From a virus (taxonomy: Duplodnaviria > Caudoviricetes): 25,000 nucleotides of DNA. Of the stretch, positions 12,326-21,571 are shown piece by piece. The notes beneath the pieces were generated by a model. It made no database searches. It was not told where the DNA came from and was given only the letters and a program-made list of their open reading frames with translations. The translations under genes and the position numbers were made by a program. Position 1 is the stretch's first letter. Every line of letters starts with the position of its first letter. The stretch is from IMG/VR virus record IMGVR_UViG_3300038675_000977, positions 1-25,000 of that record, one strand, 5' to 3'.

Positions 12326-12529
12326 TTACATTAAAAAGGTTGCCAAATCGGTTTCCGATTCGATGGGTTTGCCTCGTTTCACCTCTTCGCCGGTTACGTA
12401 GCGGGGTGCGTCGGCAATCATCATTTCAAGGTTCATCCAGCTAATGCCCCACAGGATGTAGTCGAGTGTCCAGCCGGTTGCTGCGGCAATGCTCCAAATG
12501 GTTCCCCACGGGCTATGGAGGCCGGTCAT
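12326..12529 (-). CDS. Second tail assembly chaperone segment (gpT-like), in the -1 frame relative to the upstream chaperone
   Basis: HSPWGTIWSIAAATGWTLDYILWGISWMNLEMMIADAPRY; sits immediately before the tape measure; its frame is open across the upstream stop. Confidence 0.75.
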   Translation of the reverse strand: MTGLHSPWGTIWSIAAATGWTLDYILWGISWMNLEMMIADAPRYVTGEEVKRGKPIESETDLATFLM

Positions 12530-12537
12530 GCGGCCTG

Positions 12538-13020
12538 TTAACTCCCGCTTTCGTCGTGGCTCAAATTGCGCGGCGCTGTGGCTTTCATCCGCATGGCGCC
12601 TATCAATCTGATAGTAGTTGTGAAATCCTCGTACCCGGCGAATGCAACGGCCAGGAGGGCAATTTCGGCCATTTTTCGCGGGGTGAGCTTCCACATGAGC
12701 CAGCGGGCCACGGGGCGGGCAAACAACCTGATTTTCCATTTCCCGTTCAGGAACAGCACCGCCATGATGCGCGACAGCGGCATGATGTTCCGGCGCAGCA
12801 GTTCGTGCACTTCGCCCAGTTCGCCGCTTTCGAGCTTCGACACGTCGAACCCGGCTTTCAGGCTGATGCGCGACACGTACAGCAGTGTGCCGTATTTCGG
12901 CTGGCGCAACACCAGGCCAATTTCGCGGCAGAACAACCGCAGAAAAAAAGGGGCGGGCAACTTCACCCTTACCCCTTTTTCAAGAATTGTATCGGCAGCA
13001 TTCTGCTCTGTTGGTTTCAT
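12538..13020 (-). CDS. Tail assembly chaperone (gpG-like)
   Basis: 160 aa between the tail tube and tape measure, the canonical siphovirus order. Confidence 0.7.
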   Translation of the reverse strand: MKPTEQNAADTILEKGVRVKLPAPFFLRLFCREIGLVLRQPKYGTLLYVSRISLKAGFDVSKLESGELGEVHELLRRNIMPLSRIMAVLFLNGKWKIRLFARPVARWLMWKLTPRKMAEIALLAVAFAGYEDFTTTIRLIGAMRMKATAPRNLSHDESGS

Positions 13021-19039: not shown

Positions 19040-19091
19040 GGGTGGCGCGGTTTTTAACCGCGTTAAATGGCGGTTGAAAACCGCCACACCC
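19040..19091. promoter_or_regulatory. Double-hairpin (three-way junction) element upstream of the portal gene
   Basis: CGCGGTT-ttt-AACCGCG (19046-19062) and TGGCGGTT-gaa-AACCGCCA (19068-19086), enclosed by GGGTG/CACCC. Confidence 0.55.
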
Positions 19092-19111: not shown

Positions 19112-21571
19112 ATGGCAACAAAAAAACCAGTAACAAAAAAAAGCGAGGCCACGGTAATCAACCAGCTGATTGTGAAAGCGCCGACGCGCAAAACACACGA
19201 CATAGGCGAGTGGCGTAATGCCCTGAAAAGCGCCGACATGGGCCGCACCAAAACGCTGTACGAACTGTTCGACGACCTGCTCATAGACGGGGTGCTGAGC
19301 GACGCCGTTGAAAAACGTATCCTTGCCGTGCTCAACTCGGAGCTTACCTTCCAGGATGCTTCGGGAAAAGACAACGAGGAAATGACAGCCGTTATCGACA
19401 CGCCCGCGTTCGAGGAGATGCTGCGCACCATTATGAACGTGCTGCTGTGGGGCCGTGCAGGCGGTGAGTTAGATTTTGCCAACGGCTTCGGCTTTGTGCC
19501 GTTCGACCCGCGCCACATCTCGCTCGAAACAAAAAATATACTGCTCAACCCAACCGATACAACCGGCATTCCCTACGAGGGCGACGACCACCTGCTGGTT
19601 CTGGGCAAGCCCCGTAACTTTGGCCTGCTGCTGAAAACAGCGCCGTTTGCCATCTGGAAACGCGGTGGCTTTGGCGATTATGCCCAGTGGCTCGAAATCT
19701 TTGGCATGCCGCAGCGCGTGGGCAAATACAGCAGCTACGACCCCGAAAGCCGCAAGCTGCTCGAACAGGCATTAGAACAGGCCGGTTCTGCCCCTTATGT
19801 GGTAATACCAAAGGAAAGCGAGGTGGAAACCACCAACAACACCGGCAGCGGCAGTTCAGGCGTTTCGTACAACGATTTCCGCAAGGCGTGCAACGAAGAG
19901 ATATTGATTACGCTGCTGGGGCAAACCCTCACCACCACGCAGAACGACACCGGTGCCCGCTCGCTGGGCGAGGTGCATAAAGAGGTGGAGGAAAGCAAAA
20001 ACAAGGCCGACATACGCATGGTGCAACGGGTGCTGAACACGCAGGTGCTGCCCCTGTTGGAAAGCCGCGGCTTCCCGGTGTCGGGCGGAAAATTTGTTTT
20101 TCCGGATGCCGCGGTTGACCTTACCGTTACCGACATCGTTCAGCTGAGCGACATCCTTGAAATTCCGCAGAGCTACCTGCACGATAAGTATTCCATTCCG
20201 GTTCCTGAAAACGGCGAACCCATTGCCCGCAGGGCAGCAAGCCCGGCGCCGGTATTACCCGGTGAGGACGACGACGAAGGCGACGACATTAAAAATGCCG
20301 ACCGGACGGTCTTCAGGAGGCTATTCAATTTTTTCGCATTGGCCCCGGCCTCTTTGAGCGCCGGGGCTGGCAGTCACCCCATAAAACTGAATGACGAAAC
20401 GCTGAACGACCGGATTATCAGCCATGCCATTGAACAGGGCGGATTTTTCCCGGAGCTGTTTGAATTCATCAGCGACGACCTGCTTACGGCGCTCACCCGG
20501 AAAGCTGCCCAGCTGGCCGACCTTGGTTTTGAATACGGCTACCAAAGCGATGCTTTCCGCACGGCGCAGGAACTGAACATCTTCCAGTTCAGCGCGGCAA
20601 AGTCGCTGGCCGAAGTGCAGCGCCTGAACGAGCTGTACCGCGAAAGCAAATCGTTTGAAGATTTCTACGCCAAAGCTTCGGCAGAAGTTGACGTGTTCAA
20701 CAAAACATGGCAGCGCACCGAGTGGCAAACGGCTAACCTGCTGAACGAAAGCGCCGAAAACTACAACCGCCTGAACAGCAAAACGCGGCTTTTCCCTTTC
20801 TGGGAATACCGCACCGTGGGCGACGACAAAGTGCGCAAGGAGCACCGCGACATTAACGGAATTATACTTCCAACCGACGACCCGCGCTGGCAAAAGATAT
20901 GGCCGCCCAACGGCTGGAAATGCCGCTGTTATGTGGTAGCCCGTATGCGCCACGAAGTAACCGACACACAGGTGGCCGAAAGCCGCGCCCGGGTGGATGC
21001 CTTTTTTCAGACCGACGAATGGAAACGCGCACAGGCTTCGGGCTTTGGCGTGAACCGCGCCTCGATGCCAGAGGTGTTTGCCGAAAATCAGCAGTACATC
21101 CGCAAGTTTCCGAATCAGGCGAGCAAGCTGCTGAAAGATGTGAACTACCACAGCTACGGCCTGAAAAATTACGAAACGAACCGCAAGGCTGCTACTACGG
21201 CGTTGCCGGTGTACGAAAGTAAACCTGCCGACTTTGTGGCTGCCCTGAAACAGGAAAACGGCGTTTCGCTGGCGACAGACTACAAAGGGCGCACGGTTGA
21301 ATTCGACCTCACCGCCAAAGGCGACAGCCAACTGCTGAAAGCGGCATACGAAACCCTGAAACTACCCGACGAGGTGTGGATAAATGAAGGCAACACCAAA
21401 GTGTTCGACCAGATTATTACGCTGAAATACTACACCGACAAGGTAATGACCGTTACTTCCAGCATAAAAGGCGGGAAGGTGTATAAGGTGAGCCGCTTTG
21501 AAGTGGCAAAGGAAACGGGCGAAAAATACCGCTACCGCCACGGGCTTTTAATTAAAAAACCGCAGCCATGA
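19112..21571 (+). CDS. Portal (DUF935/Mu gp29-like) fused to MuF head-morphogenesis domain and C-terminal nuclease-like extension
   Basis: Portal: EIFGMPQRVGKY, LLGQTLTT, SLGEVHKEV. MuF: EYRTVGDDKVRKEH...PPNGWKCRC. C-terminus: ETLKLPDEVW...KYY...RHGLLI. Start placed at MATKK (19112). Confidence 0.9.
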   Translation: MATKKPVTKKSEATVINQLIVKAPTRKTHDIGEWRNALKSADMGRTKTLYELFDDLLIDGVLSDAVEKRILAVLNSELTFQDASGKDNEEMTAVIDTPAFEEMLRTIMNVLLWGRAGGELDFANGFGFVPFDPRHISLETKNILLNPTDTTGIPYEGDDHLLVLGKPRNFGLLLKTAPFAIWKRGGFGDYAQWLEIFGMPQRVGKYSSYDPESRKLLEQALEQAGSAPYVVIPKESEVETTNNTGSGSSGVSYNDFRKACNEEILITLLGQTLTTTQNDTGARSLGEVHKEVEESKNKADIRMVQRVLNTQVLPLLESRGFPVSGGKFVFPDAAVDLTVTDIVQLSDILEIPQSYLHDKYSIPVPENGEPIARRAASPAPVLPGEDDDEGDDIKNADRTVFRRLFNFFALAPASLSAGAGSHPIKLNDETLNDRIISHAIEQGGFFPELFEFISDDLLTALTRKAAQLADLGFEYGYQSDAFRTAQELNIFQFSAAKSLAEVQRLNELYRESKSFEDFYAKASAEVDVFNKTWQRTEWQTANLLNESAENYNRLNSKTRLFPFWEYRTVGDDKVRKEHRDINGIILPTDDPRWQKIWPPNGWKCRCYVVARMRHEVTDTQVAESRARVDAFFQTDEWKRAQASGFGVNRASMPEVFAENQQYIRKFPNQASKLLKDVNYHSYGLKNYETNRKAATTALPVYESKPADFVAALKQENGVSLATDYKGRTVEFDLTAKGDSQLLKAAYETLKLPDEVWINEGNTKVFDQIITLKYYTDKVMTVTSSIKGGKVYKVSRFEVAKETGEKYRYRHGLLIKKPQP
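20329..20368 (+). promoter_or_regulatory. Candidate programmed -1 ribosomal frameshift signal
   Basis: In-frame T_TTT_TTC (20329-20335), 5-nt spacer, then hairpin GGCCCCGGC-CTC-ttt-GAG-c-GCCGGGGCT (20341-20368); the -1 frame stops at 20392-20394. Confidence 0.65.

Follow-up and report, generated by a model that had tools for sequence, protein, structure and literature searches.

The stretch of DNA analysed here, 25,000 nucleotides long and corresponding to positions 1 to 25,000 of the IMG/VR virus record IMGVR_UViG_3300038675_000977 (the window), belongs to a Mu-like Bacteroidota phage and carries a candidate programmed -1 ribosomal frameshift signal within its portal gene. The open reading frame (ORF) in question extends on the plus strand from 19112 to 21571 and, by direct reading, profile matches and a structure model of its portal part, encodes a fused portal-MuF-PBECR2-like protein with a frame-0 product of 819 amino acids and 92 kDa. 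By profile and fold the gene is a Mu-type portal, as the Portal_Mu domain PF06074 (amino acids 50-362, 19259-20197) is matched at an E value of 1e-69 and the top structural matches of the modelled portal part are the JBD30 and Mu portals. The Phage_Mu_F core PF04233 (amino acids 554-608, 20771-20935, E 5e-11) sits beside the portal as in the MuF polymorphic toxins, followed by a PBECR2-like C-terminal cargo (amino acids 736-813, 21317-21550), which scores 21.2 bits against a Pfam cut-off of 27.1. Of the portal-MuF-effector fusion proposed in the initial annotation, portal and MuF stand, while the effector is only a weak PBECR2 match here and becomes clear in the many relatives that exceed the cut-off. 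The AlphaFold model, based on 65 homologues, consists of the portal fold, a low-confidence linker (amino acids 372-428, with a predicted local distance difference test score below 50 over most of its length) and a folded MuF-cargo half, of which the helical MuF region begins near amino acid 431. An acidic stretch, EDDDEGDD (20264-20287), lies inside the linker. An alternative upstream ATG at 19067 would give a protein of 834 amino acids; the methionine at 19112 is invariant in the 65 homologues.

Reading frame 0 from the ATG at 19112, the sequence AAT TTT TTC is met at 20327-20335, which places the slippery heptamer T_TTT_TTC (20329-20335) over Phe407-Phe408 in the phase X_XXY_YYZ and within the low-confidence linker between the folded portal and MuF. 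The spacer (20336-20341) is variable in the family except for its first G and measures 5 nt up to a closing G-U pair and 6 nt up to the conserved GCCC core of the predicted stimulatory hairpin (20341-20368). This hairpin is built from a core of GCCCCGGC (20342-20349) and GCCGGGGC (20360-20367) with the inner pairing CTC/GAG, amounting to 12 bp arranged as 9 bp, a 1-nt bulge, 3 bp and a 3-nt loop; its folding energy is -23.3 kcal/mol (z -4.3), a stability equalled by none of 200 shuffled sequences. In comparison with its relatives the window hairpin is unusually strong (-21 versus a median of -12 kcal/mol). Read in the -1 frame, 20329-20394 would encode the tail FFRIGPGLFERRGWQSPHKTE followed by a stop, dual-coded with the frame-0 linker and containing a WxxPH motif at 20368-20382; with the TGA at 20392-20394 the predicted short product has 427 amino acids and 47 kDa. 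The correctly phased heptamer behind the portal domain, the 5-nt spacer with its GC-rich 9-bp and 3-bp hairpin, and the two product sizes of about 427 and 819 amino acids had all been put forward in the initial annotation and are reproduced by direct reading and folding. Among 41 in-phase X_XXY_YYZ heptamers with A or T as Y in 24 ORFs of the window, the site at 20329 has the most stable downstream fold. The cassette pattern of the family occurs once in the window and in none of 100 shuffles, which, as the pattern was derived from the family, serves as a sanity check only. A Shine-Dalgarno-like AGGAGG, made up of two AGG arginine codons, lies 8 nt before the heptamer (20315-20320), at the distance of a Shine-Dalgarno stimulator; its role is doubtful, as such a stimulator is not conserved upstream, with GAGG or AGGAG present in only 9 of 85 fused clusters. 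A diverged relative from an independent sequencing study spans the junction with the heptamer unchanged and several changes in the hairpin, as judged from the 40 of 58 differences listed. It is one of four sequencing runs compared as contigs, material that does not bear on slippage or expression; another of them is free of differences from the stretch but may be the source of the window, and no RNA run is among those listed with this sequence.

Relatives were collected by protein similarity (382 loci) and by a scan with a DNA pattern (120 loci), and the window, the 382 loci and the first 80 pattern loci, 463 sequences in total, were classified and grouped at 90% portal identity into 189 clusters; 40 pattern loci with short flanks were left out of the clustering, and three loci with a broken portal, two with a weak match and 16 with none were left out in classification. 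Type A, with MuF fused in frame 0 and an in-phase T heptamer as in the window, comprises 89 clusters, and type B, with the same heptamer and MuF open in the -1 frame, 77 clusters; the rest are fused without heptamer (eight), lack MuF nearby (six) or are short, +1 or otherwise odd (nine). Roughly 160 diverged lineages of Bacteroidota phages retain the cassette of T run and hairpin. Protein searches, in which the cassette is no selection criterion, account for 140 of the clusters; 88 of these are type A and 30 type B, and 89 of the 96 fused clusters of this set possess the T-site with the hairpin, 86 as a heptamer (including L239, the variant stem of which is missed by the anchor rule described below) and three with a T_TTT tetramer only at the same spacing.

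The opposite polarity was first met in three loci (L142, L156 and L157) in which the portal stop lies 15 codons past the site and a -1 ORF of 426-443 codons carries MuF, with no methionine ahead of the MuF core. Throughout the 77 type-B clusters the portal gene stops 3-19 codons past the site, in 39 of them while still within the spacer (for example FFD-stop), and FFRxSP begins the -1 frame in 57. The first ATG of the MuF ORF is found more than 40 codons in for 57/77 and at or beyond the MuF core, or nowhere, for 21/77. Three named phages have the cassette, of which P. gingivalis phage007a is type A, and Hankyphage jmh43 and Elizabethkingia phage TCUEAP3 are type B; MuF of TCUEAP3 is annotated from a methionine 100 codons into the -1 frame. 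In the available part of a virion mass spectrometry study of Hankyphage, in which spectra were searched against the annotated genome, 20 portal and three MuF peptides are reported, both from the 250-85 kDa gel slice that also holds small proteins such as Gam and the adaptor (PMC12135933); given this slice and this database, the data speak neither for nor against a fusion of the two.

The pattern scan uses DNA only and is blind to reading frame and phase. Even so, 84 of the 85 matches (out of 120) with an upstream portal are in the X_XXY_YYZ phase. The first 80 pattern loci, with full flanks, comprise 57 of type B, four of type A, two short ones and 17 without portal, and type B is probably the commoner type overall. 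This phase locking bears on the possibility that an additional U is inserted through slippage of RNA polymerase on the T run, such that a share of the mRNAs encodes the short portal and the ribosome stays in frame. Polymerase slippage predicts products identical to those of ribosomal slippage, is known from dnaX of T. thermophilus (PMC5009743), and a few relatives (L218, L184) have longer T runs without a hairpin. On the other hand, the run is short, six T closed by a C, it is locked to the codon frame, and a conserved structure follows 3' of it at the distance of a ribosome stimulator. While the polymerase crosses the run, a structure 3' of the run is still untranscribed, which likewise weighs against an origin in transcription; overall, polymerase slippage is regarded as very improbable.

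Selection on the nucleotide level was assessed on a codon alignment of 92 fused clusters (the 96 minus four clusters with an A run); setting the window itself aside, 85 of them share 38-80% identity with it. When the 125 conserved degenerate columns are ranked by synonymous fixation, the first five places all go to codons of the cassette, namely Phe407 (TTT in 88/88), Ala411 (GCC in 89/90), Phe408 (TTC in 83/90), the stem-closing glycine (GGG in 69/80) and Pro412 (CCG in 61/83). The next column reaches a fixation of 0.71, other conserved phenylalanine columns range from 0.52 to 0.71, and the median over columns is 0.57 for two-fold and 0.38 for four-fold and more degenerate codons. This ranking is largely free of the problem of relatedness because all columns share one history. 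Moreover, the base preceding the first phenylalanine is T in 92% of the rows irrespective of the amino acid encoded, and of 75 further Phe-Phe pairs only 4 are encoded as T TTT TTC.

For the stem, pairs were counted by anchoring, with the 5' arm placed at a fixed distance of 6 nt from the heptamer and the 3' arm located by its GGGC to accommodate variable loop lengths; pairs 1-4 serve as the anchor and are thus uninformative on covariation. Of 85 fused clusters, 79 form pair 5 (shuffle mean 70.9) and all 85 form pair 6 (shuffle mean 54.1); among 75 clusters of opposite polarity, pair 5 is formed in 72 (shuffle mean 54.3) and pair 6 in 64 (shuffle mean 29.4). G-C, C-G, A-U and U-A types all occur at these two positions, and 0 of 2000 shuffles are as high; for pairs 5-7, which covary in both polarities, at most 1 of 2000 shuffles matches the observed pairing, although, as the clusters and the sequence pairs compared below are related, these counts and the p-values below overstate independence. 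Measured against synonymously recoded versions, the native fold has a z below -2 in 45 of 88 cassettes versus 9 of 252 control segments. The length of the type-A hairpin is 17, 20, 23 or 26 nt in 68/85, indicating that loop insertions and deletions are mostly frame-preserving. The expectations formulated beforehand for the relatives, a conserved TTTTTTC, a compensatory hairpin underneath FFxxAP and a class with MuF in the -1 frame, are thereby borne out, and a pattern of synonymous changes breaking heptamer or hairpin was looked for in the homologues and not seen.

The tail of the predicted short product was examined in 73 disjoint pairs, with differences counted at frame-0 codon positions two and three and with L218, L146 and L371 excluded, as they were from the analyses of hairpin strength and tail structure. 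Between the hairpin and the -1 stop 185 differences fall on second and 202 on third positions (671 codons), compared with 170 and 452 just downstream (924 codons) and 324 and 645 upstream (Fisher p 6e-11 and 1e-6); the tail has proportionally fewer differences at third positions and more at second positions. Amino acid conservation in the tail is equal in both frames (0.39 versus 0.40), and the controls favour frame 0 (0.34 versus 0.56 downstream). W..PH ends 41 of 88 tails, with the proline encoded by all four codons while frame 0 varies among L, R, P and H. In a second group (22/88 when matched loosely) the tail closes with a helix, for example ELRNQINRQYY, similar by eye to the start of type-B MuF extensions (LIDSLY, VNTLY). 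Past the hairpin the tail is shorter than 5 codons in 4/84 and longer than 25 codons in 1/84, compared with null fractions of 0.27 and 0.23. A pseudoknot, a second hairpin and loop pairing were looked for in the tail region and gave no signal. As judged from these substitution patterns, coding selection acts separately on the -1 tail, and translation of the -1 frame in type-A phages is the simplest reading.

Covariation and tail selection also bear on the proposal of a relic or protein motif, in which FFxxAP..GA would serve for cleavage or binding, for example by a prohead protease, and free portal would arise by proteolysis without any frameshift in the fused genes. Indeed, FFxxAP is nearly invariant in the protein and located in the exposed linker of the model, the window contains a protease-like gene, and fused portal-MuF genes have been published without reference to recoding in the available part of the report (PMC7302621). 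However, a protein motif explains neither the fixed synonymous codons nor the covarying pairs, the stem is kept even though the frame-0 stop precedes the AP codons in 39 of the 77 clusters of opposite polarity, and a relic would not maintain selection on the -1 tail across the fused lineages. The proposal is consequently considered highly unlikely as a substitute for frameshifting, while proteolytic cleavage could occur in addition to it.

With respect to the history of the two polarities, trees were calculated with FastTree for portal (121 rows) and MuF (114 rows); at least four changes between type A and type B are needed on the portal tree and three on the MuF tree, numbers with modest support from quick, unrooted trees that do not give the direction. 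Where type-B rows are nested within type A on the portal tree, their MuFs cluster with those of other type-B rows; type A is split into two lineages on the MuF tree. This suggests that the fused polarity arose more than once and that MuF-cargo modules were exchanged near the cassette. The better tracking of polarity by the MuF module than by the portal is also the observation that favours a DNA or RNA site merely located in the gene, be it a terminator, a processing site, a protein-binding inverted repeat or a point of module exchange. Such a regulatory or recombination site leaves the phase locking and the MuF ORFs without early ATG unexplained, the element has no match in Rfam at E up to 1, and this is the least probable of the explanations considered. 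An intrinsic terminator was rejected as an identity of the element, as the T run precedes the hairpin, which does not make a terminator on either strand, and a terminator scan did not return the site.

Cumulatively, the cassette at 20329-20368 is, with high probability, a programmed -1 ribosomal frameshift signal, the slip and its ribosomal nature being what we infer. The basis for this assignment, established at the level of sequence comparison, is the phase, the fixed spacing, the synonymous fixation, the covariation of the stem, the selection on the -1 tail and the presence of the same cassette in opposite polarity. Tandem slippage of two tRNAs stimulated by a hairpin is a standard mechanism. 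The hairpin would halt ribosomes while two tRNA-Phe occupy UUU UUC, and a part of these ribosomes would re-pair one base back (UUU UUC to UUU UUU) and terminate at 20392, so that one gene would give rise to a 427-amino acid portal with a short selected tail and to the 819-amino acid portal-MuF-PBECR2-like fusion. More tentatively, both products may co-assemble into a mixed portal ring, by which MuF and cargo would enter the head tethered to some subunits only. U_UU.U_UU.C is among the efficient motifs in E. coli (PMC4066793), and gp7 of SPP1 binds the portal, with one to two copies of MuF per capsid (PMC5576092).

Several observations weigh against this reading, in addition to the relatedness of the clusters already mentioned. 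A signal of low efficiency would let the window type produce mostly fusion, which fits poorly with the one to two copies of SPP1 gp7 (PMC5576092). Hairpin strength is alike in the two polarities (median -12.3 versus -12.7 kcal/mol, p 0.31), and equal strength would imply opposite ratios of free portal to fusion in types A and B unless efficiency is near one half. The 77 type-B clusters derive to a large part from the pattern scan, which selects for the cassette (47, versus 30 from protein searches), and as the remaining approximately 20 of the 77 have an early ATG, some type-B members could initiate MuF on their own, including Hankyphage, where the ATG is codon 14 of the -1 frame and overlaps the portal stop. 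Seven of the 96 fused clusters (L133, L146, L218 and the four A-run clusters) lack the T-site with hairpin, and six clusters have a portal without MuF nearby.

In these six (L143, L148, L152, L153, L155 and L159) the end of the portal domain is also the end of the portal gene; linker, cassette and nearby MuF are all absent, and another ORF adjoins. The A-run clusters (L190, L191, L194 and L219; for example L191:2494-2530) form a fused clade that has lost the T cassette; the junction instead carries A_AAA_AAG or A_AAA_AAA in phase, the hairpins are weak, the -1 stop follows after 3-17 codons, and the A run may represent a convergent replacement. An A-type frameshift is also a candidate in Flavobacterium phage fF4 (L511:3298-3319), which has type-B geometry with the portal ending in an A run and 434 open codons of the following gene in the -1 frame. 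In two diverged loci (L215:2499-2530 and L220:2499-2530) the site reads CTT TTT TCG, the structure downstream of it differs and MuF lies in the +1 frame, which may point to a variant with a +1 shift; their relative L218 is fused, with a long T run. One-base homopolymer differences at or near the site in L309 (2217-2270), L235, L186, L195 and L237 may be assembly errors or hard-wired variants; in L309 the additional T places an RGWQSPH tail in frame 0. Three pattern matches without portal (L437, L441, L449) resemble one another in context: an ORF is open ahead of the match, the -1 frame stays open for about 80 codons, and they may be an unrelated gene or chance.

That recoding sets the number of ring subunits which bear MuF, as initially suggested, is plausible. 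The ratios could be accommodated if efficiency is near one half, if the two types tolerate opposite ratios, or if assembly selects subunits. An efficiency near one half, as in dnaX, would explain the flip of polarity without a change in hairpin strength; according to a review, the two roles swap readily at such an efficiency, a reversal predicted for some dnaX genes (PMC5009743). In its widest form the proposal is of a two-product portal ring in the Mu-like phages of Bacteroidota, in which a high-efficiency frameshift, its polarity flipped repeatedly through exchange of MuF-cargo modules at the cassette, doses MuF and a nuclease-like cargo, while the shorter product terminates in a selected motif of its own, either WxxPH or a helix similar to the N-terminal helix of MuF, a head counterpart of the tail-chaperone frameshift; this we consider a possibility somewhat short of an even chance.

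Among the closest known systems is E. coli dnaX with its tau and gamma products (as well as copA and the carboxysome gene csoS2), where likewise an internal -1 shift to a nearby stop shortens the product of a long in-frame gene, and the reversed arrangement has been predicted for dnaX in some bacteria (PMC5009743). Unlike dnaX, the present signal is located in a phage portal gene, uses U_UUU_UUC instead of A_AAA_AAG, is without a conserved upstream Shine-Dalgarno-like stimulator and leads into a selected -1 tail of about 20 codons; a cassette of the dnaX type was rejected as an identity on account of the site and of the upstream motif in only 9/85 fused clusters. The -1 frameshift of the tail assembly chaperones G/GT of long-tailed phages was reportedly described by Xu, Hendrix and Duda in 2004. 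It resembles the present case in that a conserved slippery site between adjacent morphogenesis functions yields a short and an extended product (PMC7302621, PMC7911831), but the present gene is a head gene, the extended product of the window is the unshifted one, and only the relatives of opposite polarity show the G/GT geometry. The site being in the portal gene and not in a chaperone gene upstream of the tape measure, this identity was rejected as well. At the usual place of the tail chaperone before the tape measure, the minus strand of the window (12326-13020) has a 160-amino acid ORF and, behind it in the -1 frame, a short ORF that has an ATG of its own 10 nt past the stop; no canonical slippery heptamer is present at the end of the 160-amino acid ORF. 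In T7 and T3 gene 10, A2 and PSA a share of the subunits of a virion oligomer carries a C-terminal extension, as proposed here, yet there the subunits belong to the capsid or the tail tube and the extensions are Ig-like or small, and the portal is not mentioned in the available part of the review (PMC5009743).

In the MuF polymorphic toxins, as here, MuF follows the portal and the C-terminal domain is variable (PMC5576092, PMC3482391, PMC11699363); these reports and that on the Microbacterium phage fusions (PMC7302621) present MuF as a separate gene or a fixed fusion, unlike here. Frameshift is absent from the main text of the three toxin papers, as far as available, and the accessible part of PMC7302621 uses the term for tail chaperones. 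The fused portal-MuF gene of Microbacterium phage Dismas (L508:2572-4596), in a GC-rich genome, has an in-phase C_CCG_GGC near amino acid 440 in the linker and a -1 stop 34 codons on; C_CCG_GGC is a poor slippery motif (PMC4066793). The Pikmin record contains a protease-MuF fusion instead of portal-MuF. Phage Mu (gp29/gp30) and Pseudomonas phage LPB1 share portal family and gene order with the window and differ in that portal and MuF are separate, with annotated starts, and that the last 240 nt of the portal gene are without slippery heptamer; in Mu, LPB1 and FPSV-S4, all with separate genes, such a heptamer was looked for near the portal end and not found. No description of a frameshift at the portal/MuF junction was found in the open-access literature, a search that did not extend to most subscription papers, the cluster tables of PMC4066793 and the GeneTack study, which could list the family. 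Very likely, then, this is a known mechanism in a gene for which no published case was found, with two polarities and a selected alternative C-terminus as additional features.

As to the surroundings, the window is a linear record in which head and tail genes are ordered as in a Mu-like siphophage. Its plus strand carries terminase, adaptor, portal, neck and tail-terminator genes, and the minus strand protease, capsid, tape-measure and tail genes. The next ORF at 21568, a virion morphogenesis/neck gene, overlaps the stop of the fused gene; no small ORF lies between the fused gene and this head-neck gene in the window, leaving no adjacent immunity candidate. The cargo domains among 69 C-terminal regions scanned are PBECR2, CdiA_C-like, LPD3 and Hint, and one fused relative has a Hint-like domain after the MuF core (L135:1921-2283). 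Relatives in named genomes are almost all from Bacteroidota, with a few titles of metagenome-assembled genomes giving other groups.

If the frameshift holds true, the portal gene would join the short list of phage genes with programmed recoding, in phages that are common in the gut and the oral cavity. Current annotations would be incomplete, as 'portals' of 850 amino acids would also yield a short form and MuF proteins annotated as 'separate' would be portal extensions with wrong starts. It would offer a concrete explanation of the targeting of MuF toxins to the capsid and of their dosage there, and of the tolerance of the portal ring for a large C-terminal fusion. The occurrence of a single cassette in two opposite polarities would then constitute a natural experiment on frameshift efficiency in Bacteroidota ribosomes.

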